Source: a bacterium (GTDB lineage Bacteria; Patescibacteriota; Doudnabacteria; UBA920; VMFF01). From it: 51,840 nucleotides of DNA. Numbering within the stretch: the first letter of the stretch is position 1; every line of letters begins with the position of its first letter. The translations under genes and the position numbers were made by a program. Shown one piece after another: positions 7,077-37,547 of this stretch. Where the stretch lies: positions 1 through 51,840 of the forward strand of contig DAIEPO010000002.1 of NCBI GenBank assembly GCA_027348385.1, given 5' to 3'. Under the pieces are notes generated by a model, which had not been told where the DNA came from, searched no databases, and saw only the letters and a program-made list of their open reading frames with translations.

Positions 7077-8237
7077 ATGTTCTATTTACTTTCCCTGCTA
7101 TTTATCCTTGCTCCTAGTTATGTAATCCGCTTTTCAATTTTTGGGCTACCAAGCAATTTACTTGAATTGTTGGTAGCTTTGTTTTTAGTCTGCTTCATTA
7201 TTTGGATAACTAAAAACAAACTGAGCAAGGAGTTTAAGGAATACATTCAAGCACAACCAAAGTTCTTCAAAACTTTTTTCCTCCTCTTTTTTATTTCTGG
7301 TTTTATCTCAACCTTTGTTGCACCTGACTTACAAAAAGCAGCCGGACAATTCTTAGTCTTGTTCTTAATGCCGATGCTAGTATATTTTCCTGCTGGTTTC
7401 ATTCTTGCAAACCCAATAAACAAAATACGATTTGTAAAAATTCTTTTCCTTGCAGTTGGAATAGTTTCAATCTATGGCATAATCCAATACTTTACTTTGA
7501 TTGGACTACCGAGTCAGTGGTGGGGCAATGCTAATGAACCAAAAAGAATACTAAGTTTCTTTGAATACCCAAATGCTTTTGCTTTATTTTTAGCTCCGCT
7601 TCTAGCATTCCTTCTTCCCTTTGTAAGACAGAGTGGCTTAAAAAATCTGGTCTACAAAGCATCATATGGCCTGGGTTTGATCGCTTTGCTACTAACACTC
7701 TCAAGGGGTGGCTGGCTTGGTTTACTTGTAGCCTTAGGCGTTTATACCCTTTTCTTTGCAGGCAAAAAAGAACGTTTTGTAGCCCTGACAGGCTTTGTTC
7801 TAGCGTCTATCATGGTCCTTGCAACCCCTAACTTAAGATACAGGGTTATTCTTCCTTTTATGGGTGAAAAATCAACAGTTAGTAGGTTTTCCCTTTGGCA
7901 AACTGCTGACAAAATGATTAATGACTCACCAATATTAGGCAAGGGTTTGACTGGTTTTAAAAGCAACTACGATCAATTCAATACTGATCCAAACCTTGCT
8001 TCATTAAACTATCCTCACAACATTTTCTTAAACTTTTGGGTAGAAACAGGGCTGTTGGGATTAATTTCGTTCTTAGGATTAAGCTACTTCTTTATAACTA
8101 AAGCGATTAAACAAAAAGGGTTGCTTAGTGTTGCAACAATCTTGTTTTTAACTGCACTGTACTTCCACGGTCTTGCAGATGCGCCGTATTTAAAAAATGA
8201 TCTGGCTTTAATATTTTGGATACTGTTGAGCTTATAA
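7077..8237 (+). CDS. O-antigen ligase (Wzy_C) family membrane protein
   Basis: 386 aa polytopic membrane protein with an LTLSRGGWLGLLVALG-type Wzy_C core. ATG directly follows the PBP1A stop. Confidence 0.7.
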   Translation: MFYLLSLLFILAPSYVIRFSIFGLPSNLLELLVALFLVCFIIWITKNKLSKEFKEYIQAQPKFFKTFFLLFFISGFISTFVAPDLQKAAGQFLVLFLMPMLVYFPAGFILANPINKIRFVKILFLAVGIVSIYGIIQYFTLIGLPSQWWGNANEPKRILSFFEYPNAFALFLAPLLAFLLPFVRQSGLKNLVYKASYGLGLIALLLTLSRGGWLGLLVALGVYTLFFAGKKERFVALTGFVLASIMVLATPNLRYRVILPFMGEKSTVSRFSLWQTADKMINDSPILGKGLTGFKSNYDQFNTDPNLASLNYPHNIFLNFWVETGLLGLISFLGLSYFFITKAIKQKGLLSVATILFLTALYFHGLADAPYLKNDLALIFWILLSL

Positions 8238-8240
8238 AAC

Positions 8241-8268
8241 AAAGCCCCGCATTTAGCGGGGCTTTTTC
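8241..8268 (+). terminator. intrinsic terminator
   Basis: AGCCCCGC-attta-GCGGGGCT followed by TTTTT. Confidence 0.75.
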
Positions 8269-8515
8269 TGACAAGTAGAATATCAGCTTACCAAACTCAG
8301 AATATTAATTTTGATTCATCCTGTCAATTTGTGTCTATGAATCAAACACCATTAGTAATAATGTTATAAAAAATTTAAGATGGTTTATTAGAAAATATAA
8401 GTTGGTAATCTACCCTCAAAACACCAATAATTGATGTGTTAAGGGCAGAGGGTTCTCAATTCATTTTGTAGTGAATCAGAACCCTTCCCGTATATTCGGC
8501 CGTTTAGTGGCCTGA

Positions 8516-9040
8516 TTATTCCTCCTGTTTAGCTGTGCTTTTTTGCCACTCACTCCACCTGCGATGGTAGCTCGGGAGCTCGCGGTCTTCACCAATGGGA
8601 TCTTTATATCCTGCACCTGTACTATGACCCCCATTTGCGGCAATGATTTCCGCTTCGGTGAACTCTCCGCTCGGTACTGGCGTAAATCCATGTTGAGTCC
8701 AGTAACCCAGACCATGGATAGTCTCTCCTTTGGTTTTATTCGATTTGACTCCATTGTTCTTCGCGACCGAATGTTGAATCTTCTTGCTTAGAGAAATTAA
8801 TAGCAAAAAAATTTCAACTATATCATTCGCTGGCAGGGCCGCTTCCTCTGCAGCAACCCATATAGTGTTCATCACGGATCTCTCTTGTTCGACGTTCTCG
8901 ACCGGAATTCTAAGCTCTGCTTTTGCCATTCCAACCCTCTCTGCTACAGCCATCCTTTTAGCAATCAGCTTAAGGATTTGTAGATCGATTTTCTTGATTC
9001 TGCTTCGCAGGTTCAGAAGCCGGTGTTCATAATTGTTCAT
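8516..9040 (-). CDS. chorismate mutase (AroQ class) fused to an uncharacterised ~80 aa C-terminal domain
   Basis: Residues 1-90 (LLNLRSRIKKIDLQILKLIAKRMAVAERVGMAKA...) look like a CM_2 helical domain. The remainder (GETIHGLGYWTQHGFTPVPSGEFTEAEIIAANGGHSTGAGYKDP...) I cannot place. SD GGAGGGG lies 6 nt upstream. GC-rich relative to the flanks. Confidence 0.7.
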   Translation of the reverse strand: MNNYEHRLLNLRSRIKKIDLQILKLIAKRMAVAERVGMAKAELRIPVENVEQERSVMNTIWVAAEEAALPANDIVEIFLLLISLSKKIQHSVAKNNGVKSNKTKGETIHGLGYWTQHGFTPVPSGEFTEAEIIAANGGHSTGAGYKDPIGEDRELPSYHRRWSEWQKSTAKQEE

Positions 9041-9058
9041 GGGTACCCCTCCATTGCT

Positions 9059-9895
9059 CTAGATGCAAGCAGAAATCAATTCCAGTTTGTACATCATGTA
9101 TCTGAACTGAAACAAGTTAAGTGATTGTGCACCGTCAGTTAACGCTTTTCTAGGATTGGGATGTACTTCAATAATGAGTCCGTTCGCGCCTGCTGCGATA
9201 GCCGCATAGCATAAAGCAGGAACAATATCACTGCGTCCGGCAGCATGGCTCGGATCAATGATGACAGGCAAATCAGTCATTGATTGCAGCACGGGTACAG
9301 CCGATATATCTAGAAGGTTCCTGGTGCAGCTATCAAAGCTGCGTAATCCACGTTCGCACAGAATTACCTGATCGTGGCCTCCTGCGTTCATAACGTATTC
9401 TGCGGCGAGCAAGAATTCCTTGATTGTCGCAGAAGGCCCCCGCTTCAGCAGGACAGGTTTCCCTGTTACTCCCGCTGCTTCGAGCAATGCGAAGTTTTGC
9501 ATGTTTCGTGCGCCAATTTGGATCGCATCAGCGTAGGAAGCGACCAGGTCAACATGTCGGGTATCCATTGCCTCAGTCACTACCGGCATATTGGTTTGAT
9601 TACTAACTTCGCGTAGAATTCGCAGTCCTTCCTCCTGCATTCCCCGAAATTCATATGGAGATGTTCTAGGTTTGAAAGCGCCGCCACGCAAGACTGTTGC
9701 CCCAGAACTCTGCACAGAACGAGCGGTTTGTTCCATCATTTCCAGCCCTTCTACTGAACATGGACCAGCAATCACAAACGGTCTGCGGTGCTGTGGTTGA
9801 AGATCACATCCACCAATATGCACATGTCCGATCTTAACCAAATTTTGGTGCTTCTTAACAGGAACTGCTTTCTCGTAACGCATTTTTCTTGTCAT
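9059..9895 (-). CDS. 3-deoxy-7-phosphoheptulonate (DAHP) synthase, type I-beta
   Basis: [37 protein letters not shown] and IIDPSHA motifs. Start placed at ATG 9895 (MTRKMRYE) with GGAGA 7 nt upstream. The ORF track extends to 9994. Confidence 0.85.
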
Positions 9896-9940
9896 TGTAT
9901 TTCTCCAGAGAGGGACAAGGGACGTGGTAAGGTTGTTAAA

Positions 9941-9978
9941 GAACACAAAAAAGCTTCCTGGCCAAAGCCAGGAAGCTT
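9941..9978 (-). terminator. strong intrinsic terminator between tyrA-pheA and the DAHP synthase gene
   Basis: Minus strand reads AAGCTTCCTGGC-tttg-GCCAGGAAGCTT (12-bp perfect stem), then TTTTGTGTTCTTT. Confidence 0.7.
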
Positions 9979-10060
9979 GAGTCGATTTTTCCAACTCAAA
10001 ATCCCTAGCTTCAGCCAGGCATAAAATAAAAGTAAAAAGATTGTGTATAAAGTTTTTTCA

Positions 10061-11344
10061 TCATCGTACTATTAAGAATGTAGTAGTGTTCTTTTTGTTA
10101 TCTTGTAGATCTTGATCTAATATCGCCAAGTCATACATTTCAGATAAGATTTTGGGGCCTAAAATTGCAGTGTTTTTATTTAATTTGCCTAAGCTTAAAG
10201 CTTCAGCAGTTTTTGCCGTATCAATCATTACGCCGATTCCGGTTTTCAATTTTACTTTCGGATATTTTCTGCATAAAGTGTTCTCACATTGTTTGAAAAC
10301 CTGTTCGTGAGCCATGATTGTTTTTATGGAGCCCTTGGCATCTTTGCGTCGCATTAAATAATGCCTGACAAAAATTGAAATACTGTTTTCAACTTCGAAG
10401 CTATGCTTAGAAATTGCCTGCATTGATTCCTCAACTAGGCCTCCTATCGCATTCGCTATTGCAAATACTCCAAAATCTATTCCACCTTTATTCAGTTCGC
10501 TTAATACTTTTTCTGATGTGTAAAGGTATTTGATTTTAAAATGTTTGATGTTTTCAGCTTGAGTGTAGCTAAATAGCGCTTGTTCGCTAAAACTACCCTT
10601 GCCACCCTGTATTCCGTATATAGGAAGTTTTGAATCAGAAGGTAGCAGCTGGCCGTAAATTTTTTTGTATGCAGTCCCTAAATCTAAACGCATTTGCTTA
10701 GTATACGGATTGTAGGTTTGGAGATCTGAGAAAAGTTTCCAGGAATCATTACAAGTTTGCTGCATTATTTCGTGAAGTTTTGTTGCCCCCAATGTATCAA
10801 TTACGGTGGGTTTAAAATGAACGGATTCCAACAACCTGCCCACAAAGTGGGTTAATCCTTGGGAATAAGCTGCTAAGCGATCATGCTCCTTAGGGTTCAA
10901 CTCTATCACGCCAAACCCTTTTGCTCGAAAAAAGTCTTTCCAAAATCTGTACACTTTTTTTGATCCTAAGCTTGACCACATCACAATGGAAAGTCCTTTT
11001 GATTTAGAGCTAAAACTATCTGGGCCGAAAAGAGGATGTGACAATATTGTATTTATTCCTTTCTTCTTCAAATATTTTTTGAAAATTTTGTCTGGGTGAC
11101 TTTTAACAGAAAGCACATCAATAATGGTCTGCCCGGCTTTTAAGTATTTAAGATTCTCTTTTAGCACCTTCTCAAATTTAGAAATCGGAACTGCCATAAA
11201 TATTGTTTCTGCTTGCCATGCTTTTTCAGCAGTAACTGATTTTGGTGAATGTCTATCGTGAATAAGCACGTTAAAATCAGCCCTTAAAATCTTTTCCAGG
11301 ACTTTACCAAACCTACCATGGCCGATAATGCTGACTGTTTTCAT
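10061..11344 (-). CDS. bifunctional prephenate dehydrogenase / prephenate dehydratase fusion (TyrA-PheA, no ACT domain)
   Basis: N-terminal half has the VSIIGHGRFGK Rossmann motif and SHPLFGP. C-terminal half has IQGGKGSFSEQA ... NTTTFLIVR (PDT domain) and ends right after it. Start at ATG 11344 with AAGGA 8 nt upstream. Confidence 0.8.
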   Translation of the reverse strand: MKTVSIIGHGRFGKVLEKILRADFNVLIHDRHSPKSVTAEKAWQAETIFMAVPISKFEKVLKENLKYLKAGQTIIDVLSVKSHPDKIFKKYLKKKGINTILSHPLFGPDSFSSKSKGLSIVMWSSLGSKKVYRFWKDFFRAKGFGVIELNPKEHDRLAAYSQGLTHFVGRLLESVHFKPTVIDTLGATKLHEIMQQTCNDSWKLFSDLQTYNPYTKQMRLDLGTAYKKIYGQLLPSDSKLPIYGIQGGKGSFSEQALFSYTQAENIKHFKIKYLYTSEKVLSELNKGGIDFGVFAIANAIGGLVEESMQAISKHSFEVENSISIFVRHYLMRRKDAKGSIKTIMAHEQVFKQCENTLCRKYPKVKLKTGIGVMIDTAKTAEALSLGKLNKNTAILGPKILSEMYDLAILDQDLQDNKKNTTTFLIVR

Positions 11345-11353
11345 ATATTTCCT

Positions 11354-11390
11354 TAAAAAAACAACCCTTGGCACGAAGCGAAGGGTTGTG
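11354..11390 (-). terminator. attenuator terminator immediately upstream of the tyrA-pheA SD
   Basis: Minus strand reads ACAACCCTT-cgcttcgtgcc-AAGGGTTGT followed by TTTTTTT. Confidence 0.65.
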
Positions 11391-11409
11391 AATTACTTTC
11401 TCAATTTTC

Positions 11410-11487
11410 TTACTTAAGCAATTGCAAATACCAACCCTGTTTACAGAAGCTGAAGTAATAACCGAAATTTTGAGGTAGATTTTGCAT
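11410..11487 (-). CDS. putative 25-aa aromatic-rich leader peptide MQNLPQNFGYYFSFCKQGWYLQLLK
   Basis: Hand-translated small ORF, too short for the ORF track. 7 of 25 residues are F/Y/W. It sits between a near-consensus promoter and a terminator. Confidence 0.5.
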   Translation of the reverse strand: MQNLPQNFGYYFSFCKQGWYLQLLK

Positions 11488-11493
11488 GTACAA

Positions 11494-11522
11494 ACTATAA
11501 TCTTTCGCTAAGAAAATGTCAA
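11494..11522 (-). promoter_or_regulatory. sigma70-like promoter TTGACA-17-TATAGT; the ATG of the leader peptide lies 6 nt after the -10
   Basis: Minus strand reads TTGACAttttcttagcgaaagatTATAGTttgtacATG. Confidence 0.55.
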
Positions 11523-11540
11523 GGAGTATAGTAACAAATT

Positions 11541-11570
11541 AAAAGACCCCAGAAATTTCTGGGGTCTTTT
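11541..11570. terminator. bidirectional terminator after jag
   Basis: Perfect 24-nt palindrome AGACCCCAGAAATTTCTGGGGTCT flanked by A and T runs. Confidence 0.7.
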
Positions 11571-11580
11571 AATAACTCTT

Positions 11581-12081
11581 TTAAAATCCTTTTTCTTTCG
11601 GCTTTATAACTATCCTTCGATTTGGTTCTTCACCAATGCTTTCTGTTTCAAAATCAAAATCAGCTGACAAAAATGCATGGATCACTCTTCGATCATGTGC
11701 TGGCATTGGTTCTAGTGCAACAGGGCGTCCGGTTCTTTTCAACTGCTCTAAAGCTTTCTTTGCTGTCTCTCTTAAATACCATTCTCTTTTCTTCTTGTAA
11801 TCATCAACATCTAAAGTAAAACGATCAATTGGACCATATCTCTTGTAAGCAATACTATGTATCAAGCTTTGTAAGGAATGCAGGTTGGCTCCGCGCTGAC
11901 CAATCAAAAGGTTTGAATCGGGGGAAGAAATATTAAAAGTAAAACCTTGAACATTTTGCTCAATACTTACCCTTGCTTCTACTCCCATTTTTTCAAGGGC
12001 TTCTTTAATTAAGGCCGCGATTTCCGCGGTCTTAATTTCGTTTCTCTGACCTTGATTTTCTTGGTTATCTTCTAGGTTCAT
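11581..12081 (-). CDS. jag: Jag/KhpB RNA-binding protein (KH + R3H domains)
   Basis: 166 aa. LIGQRGANLHSLQ (KH) and PMPAHDRRVIHAFL (R3H). Conserved position after yidC. Confidence 0.85.
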   Translation of the reverse strand: MNLEDNQENQGQRNEIKTAEIAALIKEALEKMGVEARVSIEQNVQGFTFNISSPDSNLLIGQRGANLHSLQSLIHSIAYKRYGPIDRFTLDVDDYKKKREWYLRETAKKALEQLKRTGRPVALEPMPAHDRRVIHAFLSADFDFETESIGEEPNRRIVIKPKEKGF

Positions 12082-12788
12082 ACAACTTCTGTCTTTGGTT
12101 TATTGCCCTTCATTATATAATATTGCTGGCCAATAGCAAACAAGGTTGTAACTATCCAATACAGTGGCAAACCAGCAGGAAGTTTAATTGATAACAGGAC
12201 AGTTAAAATCGGAAAAACATAAACTGTTTGAATCTGTAATGCTTTCTGAGTCGTATCCATAACAGCACCGCTTTGTGAAGCAACCATCATCTTTGATTGC
12301 ACAAACTGAGCAATGCCCGCAACTACACCAAAAATAATGCTTGGTTTAGATAGATCTACAAGATCAAAAAATCTAGGATTTAAAACTCCTGGGTTATGTA
12401 CCCAAGGATAGAGATATGTTTGTAATTCAGAACCACCGAGACCTAATATGAAGACTTGATACAAAGCAATCAATAAAGGTAGCTGAACCAACAAAGGTAA
12501 ACAAGAACCTAAAGGACTGACCTTATGTTCTTGATACAAAGCCATGATTGCTTGGCTTTGCGCAACCTTGTCATCTTTATGTTTTTCACGAAGATGATTT
12601 AACTTTGGTTGCAGCTCTGTCATTGCTTTCTGTGCTTTCAAAGATTTGTGGAAAGAAGGCAACAACAACAAACGAACAATTACTGTTATTAAAATAATGA
12701 CAACACCAATATCAGGAATATACCGATAGGCGAGGACCATCAGGTTAATTAACGGATCAACTAAAACTATGTGGAATAAATTACCCAT
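12078..12788 (-). CDS. yidC: membrane protein insertase YidC (short form)
   Basis: 236 aa polytopic protein with the PLGSCLPLLVQLPLLIALY core. Lies in the rnpA-yidD-yidC-jag context. Confidence 0.9.
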   Translation of the reverse strand: MGNLFHIVLVDPLINLMVLAYRYIPDIGVVIILITVIVRLLLLPSFHKSLKAQKAMTELQPKLNHLREKHKDDKVAQSQAIMALYQEHKVSPLGSCLPLLVQLPLLIALYQVFILGLGGSELQTYLYPWVHNPGVLNPRFFDLVDLSKPSIIFGVVAGIAQFVQSKMMVASQSGAVMDTTQKALQIQTVYVFPILTVLLSIKLPAGLPLYWIVTTLFAIGQQYYIMKGNKPKTEVV

Positions 12789-12791
12789 AAT

Positions 12792-13019
12792 TTAGACTAA
12801 ATCTATGCCACCTTGAGACCAAGGATTGCATCTTAATATTCTGTAAAACCCTTTAAAAAGCCCTAAAATACCGTATTTTTCAACAGATTGCTTAGTATAT
12901 TCAGAACAAGAAGGATAGTACTTACAAAAACCATTTGGATGGTTATGCTTAAAAACCCCATGATCCGGAGAAATTGTTTTCTGATATATGGTTATTAACC
13001 CAATAATGATTCTTTTCAT
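12792..13019 (-). CDS. yidD: membrane protein insertion efficiency factor YidD
   Basis: 75 aa. CKYYPSCSEY...RCNPW signature. Confidence 0.85.
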   Translation of the reverse strand: MKRIIIGLITIYQKTISPDHGVFKHNHPNGFCKYYPSCSEYTKQSVEKYGILGLFKGFYRILRCNPWSQGGIDLV

Positions 13020-13020
13020 A

Positions 13021-13356
13021 CTATGCTTTTAAAACCTTACCTCTTGTTAACGTGTACTTTAGTTGTTCAACTAACTCCTTGTTTTTAAATCCAGCAGCTT
13101 TTGGTTTTGCAACCAACATATAATCACCAGTAACTAAGCGGGGCAGTGCTAAACGCATTTGTTCGCGCAAAACTCTTTTTACCCTGTTTCTTTCAACTGC
13201 TAATTTTGATATTTTCTTTGAAACAACAAAAGCAGTCCTAGTCTTAGGTGTAGCAACAAATTTAATAACCAGGGCAGGCGTATGCATAGTCAATCCTGTG
13301 CGGTACACCTTTTGTAATTCCCTGGTTTTGTTGATCCTGTTTGCTTTTTTAAGCAT
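13021..13356 (-). CDS. rnpA: ribonuclease P protein component
   Basis: 111 aa basic protein directly downstream of rpmH. Confidence 0.85.
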   Translation of the reverse strand: MLKKANRINKTRELQKVYRTGLTMHTPALVIKFVATPKTRTAFVVSKKISKLAVERNRVKRVLREQMRLALPRLVTGDYMLVAKPKAAGFKNKELVEQLKYTLTRGKVLKA

Positions 13357-13373
13357 GCAGATTATTCAGAGTG

Positions 13374-13508
13374 TTAAACTGTGAGCTTTTTTCTCTTTTT
13401 TGCACGGCGTCTTGCCAAAACGTTTCTTCCGTTGGTGGTGCGCATACGTTTTCTAAAACCGTGTCTGCGCTTTCTCTTGATTTTCTTTGGCTGATAAGTT
13501 CGTTTCAT
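13374..13508 (-). CDS. rpmH: 50S ribosomal protein L34
   Basis: Hand translation gives [44 protein letters not shown] (44 aa). Too short for the ORF track. Confidence 0.9.
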
Positions 13509-13535
13509 CGTTAAAAGATTAATATTGACCTCTGC

Positions 13536-13564
13536 ATTATACTTTTAATTTAGCTTTTTTTCAA
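13536..13564 (-). promoter_or_regulatory. promoter TTGAAA-17-TATAAT for rpmH operon
   Basis: Minus strand reads TTGAAAaaaagctaaattaaaagTATAAT, about 27 nt upstream of the rpmH ATG. Confidence 0.45.
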
Positions 13565-13667
13565 GTCCCTGAGGAAGAAAAAAACTTTTTTGAAATATCA
13601 TCAGGATATGCACACGATATTAAAAGTCGCTTTAATTTTGTTCATATTTTAAAGGGATTTTAAATAT

Positions 13668-13696
13668 TTTACATGTTGATAACTACTTGTTAGAAT
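13668..13696 (+). promoter_or_regulatory. promoter TTTACA-17-TAGAAT for dnaA
   Basis: TTTACAtgttgataactacttgtTAGAAT, 44 nt upstream of the dnaA ATG. Confidence 0.4.
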
Positions 13697-13739
13697 GCCG
13701 GTATTGAAATAAAACGTGTGTATTTGGAGACCTTTCGTT

Positions 13740-15101
13740 ATGACCAACCAACAACTTTGGCAGGCTATTTTAGGTAATCTAGAAGTATCATTAAGCAAGG
13801 CTAATTTTACTACTTGGTTTAAAAACACAGCTATTCTAGAAAAGAACGATGACCATATCATAGTCAGCGTACCTAATGGTTTCACCAAAGAATGGTTACA
13901 GAATAAATACAACAACGAGGTTATGAAAGCCTTGAAAATGATTGCTCCTGAAGTAAAAGAAGTAAAATACCAGGTTATGGGTAGCAACACACCAAGCCCT
14001 AAGACAAATACAGAAGCAAACCAGAAAACAACCACCCAAGCTCAGACACAAAGCACTCAAAGACCAGCAAGTTCTCAAAATTCTCATGGCTTAAACCCTA
14101 AATATTCTTTTGATACCTTCATAACAGGAAAGGGGAATGAACTTGCCCATGCAGCATGTGCTGCAATCGCAAAAAATCCAGGACAAGTTTACAACCCTCT
14201 TTTTTTGTACGGTGGGGTTGGTCTTGGAAAGACCCATTTAATGCAAGCTGTTGGTCATGAAGTACTAAAAAACAATCCAACTGCAAAAGTTCTGTATGTT
14301 ACAAGCGAAAAATTCACAAATGAGTTTGTTCAAGCAATTAGTTTAGGAAAAGTTGCACAATTTAAAGATCTATACCGCAATGTTGATCTATTAATGATCG
14401 ATGATATTCAATTCTTGGCCGGAAAAGAACAAACCCAGGAAGAATTTTTCCATACTTTTAACACTCTACACCAAAATAACAAGCAAATAATCCTTTCATC
14501 AGACCGCTTACCTAAAGACATCCCAGCGATCGAAGAAAGGCTTGTTTCGCGCTTTGAGTGGGGTATGATAGCAGACATCCAGGCCCCTGATTTTGAGACC
14601 AGATTAGCCATTTTACGCTCAAAAGCTGCTGAAAAACACTATGAAGTAAGCACAGAGGTGTTAACTCATATTGCAGAAACCATCCAAAGCAACATCAGGG
14701 AATTAGAAGGGGCTTTAAACCGTTTGATGGTATATTGTCAGTTAAATAACACTAAACCAACATTAGAACAAATAAAAAGCGTTTTGGTTGGTGTTGCTTC
14801 TGCTAAAAAAAGAGTTGTTTCTGTTAAAAAATTAATGGAGGTGGTTTCTGATTTTTACAACATCACTACAGATGATCTGTTAAAACAATCCAGAAGAAAA
14901 GAATTCGTTAAACCAAGACAAGTTGCAATGTTTTTAATGCGCGAACAACTAGAAAATTCTTTTCCAAGCATTGGTGATCATTTTGGTGGACGCGACCACA
15001 CAACGGTCATGCACGCTGTAGATAAGATTACAAGATTGATGAGCGAGAAGGAATCATTGAAGCAAGAAATAGATTTAATTGTGAATAAGCTGTACATGTA
15101 G
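13740..15101 (+). CDS. dnaA: chromosomal replication initiator DnaA
   Basis: MTNQQLWQAILGNL start, Walker A GGVGLGKTHL and a C-terminal DNA-binding domain (DHTTVMHA). GGAGA lies 9 nt upstream of ATG 13740. Confidence 0.95.
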   Translation: MTNQQLWQAILGNLEVSLSKANFTTWFKNTAILEKNDDHIIVSVPNGFTKEWLQNKYNNEVMKALKMIAPEVKEVKYQVMGSNTPSPKTNTEANQKTTTQAQTQSTQRPASSQNSHGLNPKYSFDTFITGKGNELAHAACAAIAKNPGQVYNPLFLYGGVGLGKTHLMQAVGHEVLKNNPTAKVLYVTSEKFTNEFVQAISLGKVAQFKDLYRNVDLLMIDDIQFLAGKEQTQEEFFHTFNTLHQNNKQIILSSDRLPKDIPAIEERLVSRFEWGMIADIQAPDFETRLAILRSKAAEKHYEVSTEVLTHIAETIQSNIRELEGALNRLMVYCQLNNTKPTLEQIKSVLVGVASAKKRVVSVKKLMEVVSDFYNITTDDLLKQSRRKEFVKPRQVAMFLMREQLENSFPSIGDHFGGRDHTTVMHAVDKITRLMSEKESLKQEIDLIVNKLYM

Positions 15102-37230: not shown

Positions 37231-37440
37231 CCCTAAAATCTTTTAAAGTATATTTTGAGCTTGCAATATAATTGTAAACATGGTTTAATCCGTAAATTTT
37301 GACAGTATTTTTTAAAAAACAGGGTAGTGGATAATTGCTTGGGGATATGTTCGGGATGAAATGTGTGTAATTCTGCCATTTTTTGGCTTAAATAAGCCAA
37401 AAAAGTCATTTTCCTTGACATTTTGACTTCTTGCACTCAC

Positions 37441-37468: not shown

Positions 37469-37547
37469 TCCATTATGCATTTTCGCCCAATTTTTTAAGC
37501 CTAACTAGAAAGGTCCATTTTCCGTTTGGGGAATGGAGAGTTTTTAT

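Follow-up and report, generated by a model that had tools for sequence, protein, structure and literature searches.

In Escherichia coli, the pheL-pheA attenuator has a short open reading frame (ORF) with many Phe codons, a leader RNA with mutually alternative pairings (1:2, 2:3 and 3:4), and an intrinsic terminator immediately in front of the prephenate dehydratase gene (Zurawski, 1978; Gavini and Pulakat, 1991; both as cited in PMC11802643). In Corynebacterium glutamicum, the aroR leader carries a Phe-Tyr-Phe run before the aroF operon for 3-deoxy-D-arabino-heptulosonate 7-phosphate (DAHP) synthase, and stalling raises read-through (Neshat et al., 2014, as outlined in PMC11802643; see also PMC4046766). 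A leader ORF that is leaderless, lacking a ribosome-binding site (RBS), was described for C. glutamicum ilvB (Morbach, 2000, cited in PMC4046766), and leaderless polycysteine upstream ORFs (uORFs) were described in mycobacteria (bioRxiv 10.1101/834739). Here, a leader designated L1, which lies 5' of a tyrA-pheA fusion gene, was analyzed on a 51.8-kb stretch of bacterial DNA (contig DAIEPO010000002.1, 51,840 nt; hereafter the window). Judged in silico, L1 is very probably a ribosome-mediated leader-peptide transcription attenuator for Phe and Tyr, and the best explanation of the locus is that L1 is the first of two serial attenuators in one aromatic operon of the Patescibacteria (candidate phyla radiation, CPR). 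The anatomy of the leader, its alternative folds, its conservation and its recurrence in a family carry this reading. All attenuator elements of the window, with their coordinates, are on the minus strand.

L1 shares with pheL-pheA the Phe-codon-rich short ORF, the pairing scheme and the position of the terminator before a prephenate dehydratase gene. Unlike pheL, it mixes Phe and Tyr codons in place of a Phe run, has no Shine-Dalgarno (SD) sequence and is predicted to be leaderless; its enzyme is a TyrA-PheA fusion with neither a chorismate mutase nor an ACT domain, and its host belongs to the CPR, not to the Gammaproteobacteria. Nor is pheL a sequence or structure homologue of L1 or of the second leader, L2. 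The Rfam model RF01859, Phe_leader (gathering score 55), matched both at full length and on the correct strand, with 20.0 bits (E = 0.6) for L1 and 22.5 bits (E = 0.089) for L2. No Rfam family reached its gathering score anywhere in the window, nor did any in 20 related loci, and L1 and L2 are not members of RF01859 or of another curated Rfam family. Like aroR-aroF, CPR aromatic leaders precede DAHP synthase genes and, on the CPR side, would act by stall-dependent read-through. They differ from this actinobacterial system, to which they have no detectable homology, in their longer runs (FYFYF, FWFYFYF), in the presence of two attenuators in series in one operon, and in that L2 starts at an ATGA overlap and not at a transcript 5' end.

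With the ilvB leader and the cysteine uORFs of Actinobacteria, L1 would share, if its predicted start is right, a sensing ORF at the mRNA 5' end, the absence of an RBS and control of the operon by amino-acid supply; in Actinobacteria the transcription start sites (TSS) were mapped experimentally, whereas those in CPR are predicted from promoter geometry. The mycobacterial cysteine uORFs reportedly lack, for the most part, a canonical intrinsic terminator, unlike the CPR elements, which have strong hairpin and U-run terminators. In the multivalent thr (Thr/Ile) and ilvGMEDA (Ile/Leu/Val) attenuators of E. coli, codons are interleaved and any shortage relieves termination. CPR leaders likewise interleave the codons of more than one end product, Phe and Tyr and, in some relatives, Trp (FWFYF), which fits a bifunctional Phe and Tyr enzyme and the shikimate entry step. 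Full-text searches for leader peptides or attenuation in Patescibacteria, CPR or Microgenomates returned nothing relevant, and to our knowledge gene regulation in these uncultivated, reduced organisms is almost wholly undescribed. We rate the CPR attenuators as a new family of a known mechanism, with serial placement and an internal leader coupled through ATGA as possible variants.

The operon runs from the promoter through L1, the tyrA-pheA fusion, L2 and DAHP synthase to chorismate mutase (Table 1). The upstream jag gene, which encodes R3H/KH domains, ends at 11581, and a strong terminator of its own lies behind it, so the aromatic operon is a separate transcription unit. Promoter-like sites were scored out of 12 across positions 8000-14000 (6 kb), and the L1 promoter is one of just two sites reaching 11. 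Its -10 box is separated from the leader ATG by 6 nt (ttgtac), and the transcript is predicted to start at or adjacent to A11487 of that ATG; no SD was seen 5' of the ORF on inspection of the sequence. The encoded peptide has seven aromatic residues, five of them within codons 8-14. An earlier note on this DNA had listed the promoter, the 25-codon ORF opening 6 nt past the -10 box and this aromatic content, and sequence and translation agree with it on each. The terminator, a 9-bp stem with an 11-nt loop (-15.7 kcal/mol), starts 20 nt past the leader stop, and no terminator function was predicted for this hairpin on the plus strand. The note had placed the stem correctly, but its seven T are six unless the last T of the stem is counted, and the T-run directly abuts the SD of the fusion gene; the roughly 10 nt that the note had put before the SD separate the T-run from ATG 11344. 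The proposed pairing partner of region 3, AGGGTTG in codons 17-19, is fully complementary to CAACCCT, as had been claimed.

Folding was modeled under a ribosome mask covering all RNA 5' of the leading edge, which was set 15 nt past the first nucleotide of the P-site codon. In the free, untranslated leader, the 1:2 hairpin contributed about -14.9 kcal/mol. In nascent RNA ending before the terminator 3' arm, with codon 8, 10, 11 or 12 in the A site, the AGGGUUG:CAACCCU helix was the minimum-energy fold at -15.3 kcal/mol; the helix was weakened by a stall at codon 14, and with the ribosome at the stop codon the terminator 5' arm was unpaired. L1 in these models has the classical 1:2 / 2:3 / 3:4 layout, and stalling on the upstream Phe/Tyr codons, by which the earlier note had expected AGGGTTG to be freed, gave the 2:3 pairing at codons 8-12.

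According to the proposed mechanism, transcription would start at or a few nucleotides from the leader AUG, and a 70S ribosome would initiate there without an SD and trail the polymerase. With Phe and Tyr plentiful, the ribosome would reach the UAA while the terminator 5' arm, 20 nt on, is unpaired; the 3:4 hairpin and U-run would then form and the transcript would end at about 11355. With Phe-tRNA or Tyr-tRNA scarce, a stall on codons 8-12 would melt the 1:2 hairpin and free AGGGUUG to pair with the emerging CAACCCU, and the terminator would be blocked and the fusion gene transcribed. L2 would work likewise for the pathway-entry enzymes, its leader probably being read after reinitiation by ribosomes at ATGA.

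L2, which was absent from the earlier note, is the stronger of the two attenuators. Its ATG at 10064 shares bases with the TGA that ends the fusion gene (10063-10061), giving ATGA. For stalls at four of five modeled A-site codons (10037-10028), the antiterminator was the minimum-energy fold of the full RNA (-43 to -33 kcal/mol), and it was lost, and the terminator formed, once the ribosome had moved on to the last Phe codon (10025) or to the stop. The full-length equilibrium fold held none of the 12 terminator pairs when stalled vs. 11 of 12 at the stop. The region had a fold z-score of -4.3, with 0 of 200 shuffles equally stable. The models suggest a two-state design only, antiterminator or terminator. 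As an alternative to reinitiation, a weak internal promoter with a leaderless start at the second ATG is possible: a -10-like AATAGT (10073-10068) lies 6 nt before that ATG, with the same spacing in the close relative described below, and no -35 box was found at that site. A further candidate leader here, an in-frame extension of DAHP synthase from TTG 9994 (W-L-W, F-F-V-F-F), was rejected, as it would translate the terminator stem and T-run, and the true start is ATG 9895 behind GGAGA.

Table 1. Elements of the aromatic operon and of its two attenuators in the window, listed in the direction of transcription
Feature	Position	Strand	Description or basis
Intrinsic terminator of the upstream rpmH-rnpA-yidD-yidC-jag unit	11573-11538	-	16-pair hairpin and T-run
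Sigma-70-like promoter	TTGACA 11522-11517, 17 nt, TATAGT 11499-11494	-	11/12 match
Leader ORF L1	11487-11410, TAA 11412-11410	-	MQNLPQNFGYYFSFCKQGWYLQLLK; 25 codons and stop; translation
L1 sensor codons 8-14	11466-11446	-	UUC GGU UAU UAC UUC AGC UUC = F-G-Y-Y-F-S-F
L1 1:2 'protector' hairpin	11467-11399	-	AGGGUUGG in loop; minimum-energy fold of free leader
L1 antiterminator domain (2:3)	region 2 11438-11432, region 3 11388-11382	-	AGGGUUG : CAACCCU; encloses small internal hairpin
L1 intrinsic terminator (3:4)	stem 11389-11381 / 11369-11361, T6 11360-11355	-	ACAACCCTT / AAGGGTTGT
SD and tyrA-pheA fusion	11354-10061; SD 11354-11350, ATG 11344	-	AAGGA; 427 aa
Leader ORF L2	10064-10011, stop 10013-10011	-	17 aa; FYFYF at 10037-10023
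L2 antiterminator (long hairpin)	10019-9957	-	takes up terminator 5' arm, loop and part of 3' arm
L2 terminator	9978-9947 (stem 9978-9951)	-	AAGCTTCCTGGC-tttg-GCCAGGAAGCTT and T-run; 12 bp, -22.4 kcal/mol alone
DAHP synthase	9895-9059	-	278 aa; without N-terminal regulatory domain
Chorismate mutase	9040-8516	-	domain search

A single close relative (L001), with a fusion protein 86% identical, was present in the collections searched; protein search and genome and metagenome scans yielded no further close relative of L1. L001 originates from groundwater of Hainich well H41 (ERZ1292619). Synteny in L001 is the same (dnaA / rnpA...jag / fusion / DAHP synthase / chorismate mutase). Its L1, MQNQPQNFSYYFSYCKQGWHLQLLK, has the same promoter spacing and all stems intact, the changes lying in linkers, and the sensor run reads F-S-Y-Y-F-S-Y, in which F14Y retains an aromatic residue. 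Its L2 differs by two synonymous changes and keeps the ATGA overlap. In two unrelated lineages (L008 and L051) the fusion gene heads a transcription unit and is preceded by an aromatic leader of different sequence. In the leader of L008, MQKNPSRQFNFFFFYFFRFRKLGFSKFKN, the pairing AGCUGGGG:CCCCAGCU competes with a UCCCC/GGGGA terminator followed by U7, and full-length folds gave a clean switch; in that of L051, MTNNWQNTFSFFYFSNSVCKGGVL, GGGAGG is set against AGCCUCC/GGAGGCU followed by U7. The expectation that relatives retaining the hairpin should also retain an aromatic ORF was therefore borne out, since L001 keeps both and L008 and L051 repeat the design in unrelated sequence. Sufficient upstream sequence was available for 76 relatives; in most of them the fusion gene directly follows an aminotransferase or chorismate mutase gene and is operon-internal, so no leader is expected there. 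The metagenome set held no further fusion-type leaders, and before the fusion gene the device is common but not universal.

Two other candidates were set aside. The candidate VLSAKLLNQKIVLFYFSYLNCKP of L052 has a GTG start and no terminator and was left uncounted, and a motif that recurs 5' of the fusion gene in many relatives and was first considered as an alternative regulatory RNA ('IFGQKFQ'/'TW.CFW') was the out-of-frame C-terminus of an aminotransferase gene, the corresponding place being occupied elsewhere by a chorismate mutase gene. Many contigs with the Patescibacteria-type fusion (L007, L010, L014 and others) were deposited as 'uncultured Gammaproteobacteria', 'Woesearchaeota' or 'Methylomirabilota'; such labels look like placeholders or binning errors and are unfit for taxonomy.

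Aromatic leaders were scanned for in 80 genome loci and, separately, in a metagenome sample. About 20 analogous F/Y(/W) leaders with terminators were found at the heads of Patescibacteria aromatic operons, including eight loci with leaders before DAHP synthase or DAHP synthase-like genes (L038, L053, L043, L054, L059, L074, L076, L020), and the metagenome sample added L110, L119, L121-123 and L145. Tandem leader-terminator pairs stand before a single DAHP synthase-like gene in L020 (326-650), L059 (1122-1500), L076 (148-420), L119 and L121-L123. When the ribosome was stalled, 13 of 20 leaders had no terminator in their full-length fold; at the stop codon it was fully or almost fully formed in all of these 13 except L008, where the automatically picked stem was wrong and the leader was refolded by hand. 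In nearly all of the 20, stalling led the arm of the truncated RNA to pair with upstream sequence, and with the ribosome at the stop codon most or all of the arm was unpaired. Complementarity between antiterminator and terminator 5' arm beat the shuffles in nearly every one of 17 independent leaders (Fisher combined p = 1.4e-13), and in these region 2 lay constantly 9-25 nt past the leading edge of the stalled ribosome. Across the analogues, the leader stop codon precedes the terminator arm by 17-49 nt.

Terminator stems in L054, L065, L074, L079, L048 and others were nearly identical, (G)ACCUCCC-N4-GGGAGGU(U), and the first terminator of L076 has its 3' arm (AGGAGG) at SD distance from the ATG of the second leader. 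As the 3' arm is SD-like and lies a few to about 10 nt before the next gene start, the hairpin could also mask an RBS. Some genes with no obvious aromatic role stood directly behind F/Y(/W) leaders or separated a leader from DAHP synthase; their products are a PfkB kinase, a homologue of class II fructose-bisphosphate aldolase and a 102-aa protein. The leader of L065 (1022-1200) precedes the PfkB kinase gene, and PfkB-like ORFs, recognized from translated sequence, lie 5' of DAHP synthase in L041, L060 and L072. The leader of L057 (1218) precedes an aldolase-...-DAHP synthase-fusion cluster in which the aldolase starts about 1 kb upstream of the DAHP synthase match, and that of L079 (1136) precedes the 102-aa ORF, whose product had no Pfam match. 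The kinase, the aldolase and the 102-aa protein are candidates for missing or alternative steps of the shikimate pathway.

The leaderless start was assessed in 14 independent, first-in-line leaders, with promoters scoring at least 10 of 12. For 10 of the 14, the -10 box ended 6-11 nt upstream of the leader start codon, an arrangement seen at only 1.55% of ATGs overall in these sequences (binomial p ~8e-16), and no SD was visible before the leader ATGs in these 10. The leaderless transcript suggested in the earlier note is thereby backed as a trait of the family, though still as a prediction from geometry, and our confidence in a leaderless start of L1 is somewhat lower than in its being an attenuator.

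An unbiased search for a promoter, ATG, ORF of 8-45 codons and terminator gave 25 matches, of which about 20 were obvious amino-acid leaders. Branched-chain leaders were among them, each followed by a terminator: Leu-rich ones (LLGLLLLALLLG), Ile-rich ones (IIIEIII, IILIII) and mixes of Val, Ile and Leu. A Leu-rich leader, MSKTIVYSFRNTENLLGLLLLALLLGAFLGRSF, at L048:4907 precedes a gene like that of 2-isopropylmalate synthase (LeuA-like), with relatives in L036 and L073; an Ile-rich one, MSKQRAQIIIEIIIASPKGGLLR, precedes an ORF with a LeuA/CimA-like N-terminus, and a Val/Ile/Leu-rich one in L015 an ORF with an IlvE-like N-terminus, all of these genes being named from N-terminal sequence only. 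The branched-chain sites are L048 4907-5100 and 6510-6600, L036 4336 and 5180, L073 4452, L015 (minus strand) 5637 and L019 (minus strand) 51. From these sequences, leader amino-acid content appears to follow the downstream pathway as far as the genes can be named, and branched-chain amino-acid operons of Patescibacteria appear to be under attenuators of this build as well. The Leu, Ile and Val leaders of the unbiased search argue that the mechanism is general in these genomes. We lean, if only slightly, toward leaderless ribosome-sensed attenuators (aromatic, Leu, Ile and Val; serial or tandem; L2 through reinitiation at ATGA) being a general control of amino-acid operons across the Patescibacteria/CPR.

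Several points weigh against attenuation at L1. The TSS, the premature 3' ends, the translation of the leader and the response to amino acids are all inferred, and we know of no demonstration of leaderless 70S initiation in CPR. In full-length RNA the L1 terminator was the equilibrium fold in every masked state. Equilibrium folding of the full-length leader was accordingly discarded as a model of the switch, because the antiterminator appeared in truncated nascent RNA only, and the switch must be kinetic and co-transcriptional; of the masked folding proposed as a check in the earlier note, the stalled antiterminator was recovered in nascent RNA and the full-length switch was not. A ribosome at the L1 stop leaves region 2 uncovered, about 5 nt behind its trailing edge and not beneath it as the note had supposed, so exclusion of the 2:3 pairing becomes a steric and kinetic argument: in the model, the ribosome standing between the two strands and the 1:2 hairpin re-forming would together prevent it. 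The one close relative differs in L1 by four amino-acid changes and no synonymous change, and coding constraint outside the aromatic run is therefore unsupported. Of 10 lineages with at least 100 nt upstream of the fusion gene, seven had no aromatic leader there. Finally, the whole-leader fold of L1 had a z-score of only -1.6 against shuffles.

That last value would also be expected if L1 were a coincidence, with a chance aromatic ORF in an AT-rich intergenic region and a hairpin that serves as a structural or insulating terminator and senses nothing. Six-frame translation of the window gave 25 aromatic clusters, defined as at least five aromatic residues in seven, vs. about 20 in Markov-1 random sequence, so that such clusters are not rare at 38% GC, and a cruder first shuffle control, which counted arm nucleotides paired upstream, was equaled for L1 in 27 of 100 shuffles. 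That control was insensitive and was superseded by a duplex-energy test of the antiterminator against dinucleotide shuffles of the intervening sequence, in which the 7-bp L1 duplex (-11.5 kcal/mol) was equaled or beaten by 2% of shuffles (p = 0.02). The chance expectation of an aromatic cluster is about 0.03-0.04 per leader. When both strands of the window were scanned for an aromatic cluster in an ORF of up to 45 codons with a terminator within 140 nt, L1 and L2 were the only two matches, and they lie directly before the window's only two aromatic transcription units. Coincidence is also opposed by the conservation of L1 and L2 in L001, by the matching antiterminators of about 20 independent analogues at the heads of aromatic operons (the combined p given above), and by leader residues that track the pathway, F/Y/W before aromatic genes and Leu before the LeuA-like gene, with Ile- and Val-rich leaders too before genes of branched-chain identity, as read from their N-termini. 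We consider coincidence very improbable.

Slightly less improbable, but still unlikely, is a real switch that is set by an RNA-binding protein, by a tRNA in the manner of a T-box, or by a riboswitch, the ORF being incidental. Translation of the leader is a prediction, the L1 ORF has no SD, and an apparent tRNA-sensing leader precedes valS in the same window. The Rfam comparison speaks against such a switch, since no family reached threshold and Phe_leader gave the sole thematically relevant matches below it. The T-box model (RF00230) had no match in 11250-11650 even at E <= 10, and the 134-nt L1 leader has no room for a T-box Stem I. No conserved ligand-pocket sequence is common to the analogues; what these dissimilar leaders share is an in-frame aromatic codon run, an AUG at the (predicted) transcript start and a stop at the distance from the arm given above.

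The short ORFs could instead encode functional hydrophobic micropeptides with a membrane or signaling role, the hairpins merely ending transcripts. The ORFs do have good promoters, and some leader peptides act in trans, e.g., peTrpL of Sinorhizobium (PMC7298713). Across the analogues, however, the peptides range from 15 to 29 aa and vary freely in sequence outside the aromatic run and the region 2 nucleotides, and the ORFs invariably share the strand of, and immediately precede, genes for aromatic biosynthesis that have no promoter of their own. This last alternative is the least probable of those considered, and extremely so on its own, although a micropeptide and an attenuator are not mutually exclusive.

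Ribosome-mediated attenuation also agrees with the enzymes encoded behind the two leaders, namely that of the Phe/Tyr branch and those at the entry to the common pathway, which match the sensor codons. The fusion protein consists of PDH_N and PDT domains (Pfam), i.e., a prephenate/arogenate dehydrogenase and a prephenate dehydratase. No ACT domain was detected in it by Pfam, and NCBIfam PDT matches stopped before the ACT part; the PDT domain reaches residue 426 of 427, leaving no room for one, so that both databases agree with the ACT-less fusion of the earlier note. Fusion homologues came almost entirely from Patescibacteria (Roizmanbacteria, Levybacteria, Daviesbacteria, WWE3, Torokbacteria), which also vindicates the guess that the host was CPR-like. 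The DAHP synthase gene has a GC content of 0.48-0.52 vs. ~0.35 in its flanks, and its closest homologues (55-66%) belong to non-CPR phyla. PF18152, an N-terminal regulatory domain, is present in nearly all of these and was not found in the 278-aa protein of the window. This suggests that the gene was acquired horizontally with loss of the allosteric domain.

As the fusion and the DAHP synthase both lack the allosteric domains of their homologues, feedback control would rest on expression. The suggestion that attenuation may be the main end-product control of the ACT-less fusion is thus supported and can be extended to the DAHP synthase; for both enzymes, control would have shifted from allostery to expression. 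DAHP synthase and chorismate mutase would be expressed only past both attenuators, and a steeper response is predicted for them. If leaderless, ribosome-sensed attenuators are indeed general in CPR, sensing by L2 would be gated by translation of the upstream enzyme gene, no cis-regulatory system for nutrient sensing would have been described for CPR before these leaders, and the leaders would speak for a coupling of CPR transcription to 70S initiation independent of an SD. The elements indicate that some CPR synthesize Phe and Tyr and also adjust this pathway to the charging of tRNA, which they would do by kinetic transcription-translation coupling of the type known from model bacteria, with the leader apparently read from the extreme 5' end of the mRNA. 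The leader pattern (promoter, AUG, amino-acid run, terminator) is easily recognized and would help to annotate pathway genes in CPR metagenomes, as a 'guilt by regulation' handle for aromatic-pathway genes of which the PfkB kinase, the class II aldolase and the 102-aa protein are candidates.

Other regulatory-looking sites were noted in the window. The valS gene (48238-46079, minus strand) has a leader of about 230 nt at 48480-48240, with a terminator-like hairpin at 48276-48260 followed by a T-run. A bulged helix, UCAAGUU[GGUAA]CUCGCC...GGCGAACUUGA, lies just before this terminator and overlaps its 5' arm. This helix resembles a T-box antiterminator with a UGGU bulge, and the leader may be a divergent T-box; no Rfam T-box match was obtained for it even at E <= 1. 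On the plus strand, two terminator-like hairpins (37379-37404 and 37514-37537) lie just 5' of a 1161-aa ORF starting at about 37548, which from its size and position is presumably rpoB. On the minus strand, a promoter-like TTGACA-17-TATTCT (8327-8299) is followed about 35 nt on by a bidirectional terminator (8265-8241), and this site (8327-8241) may yield a very short transcript or have arisen by chance.

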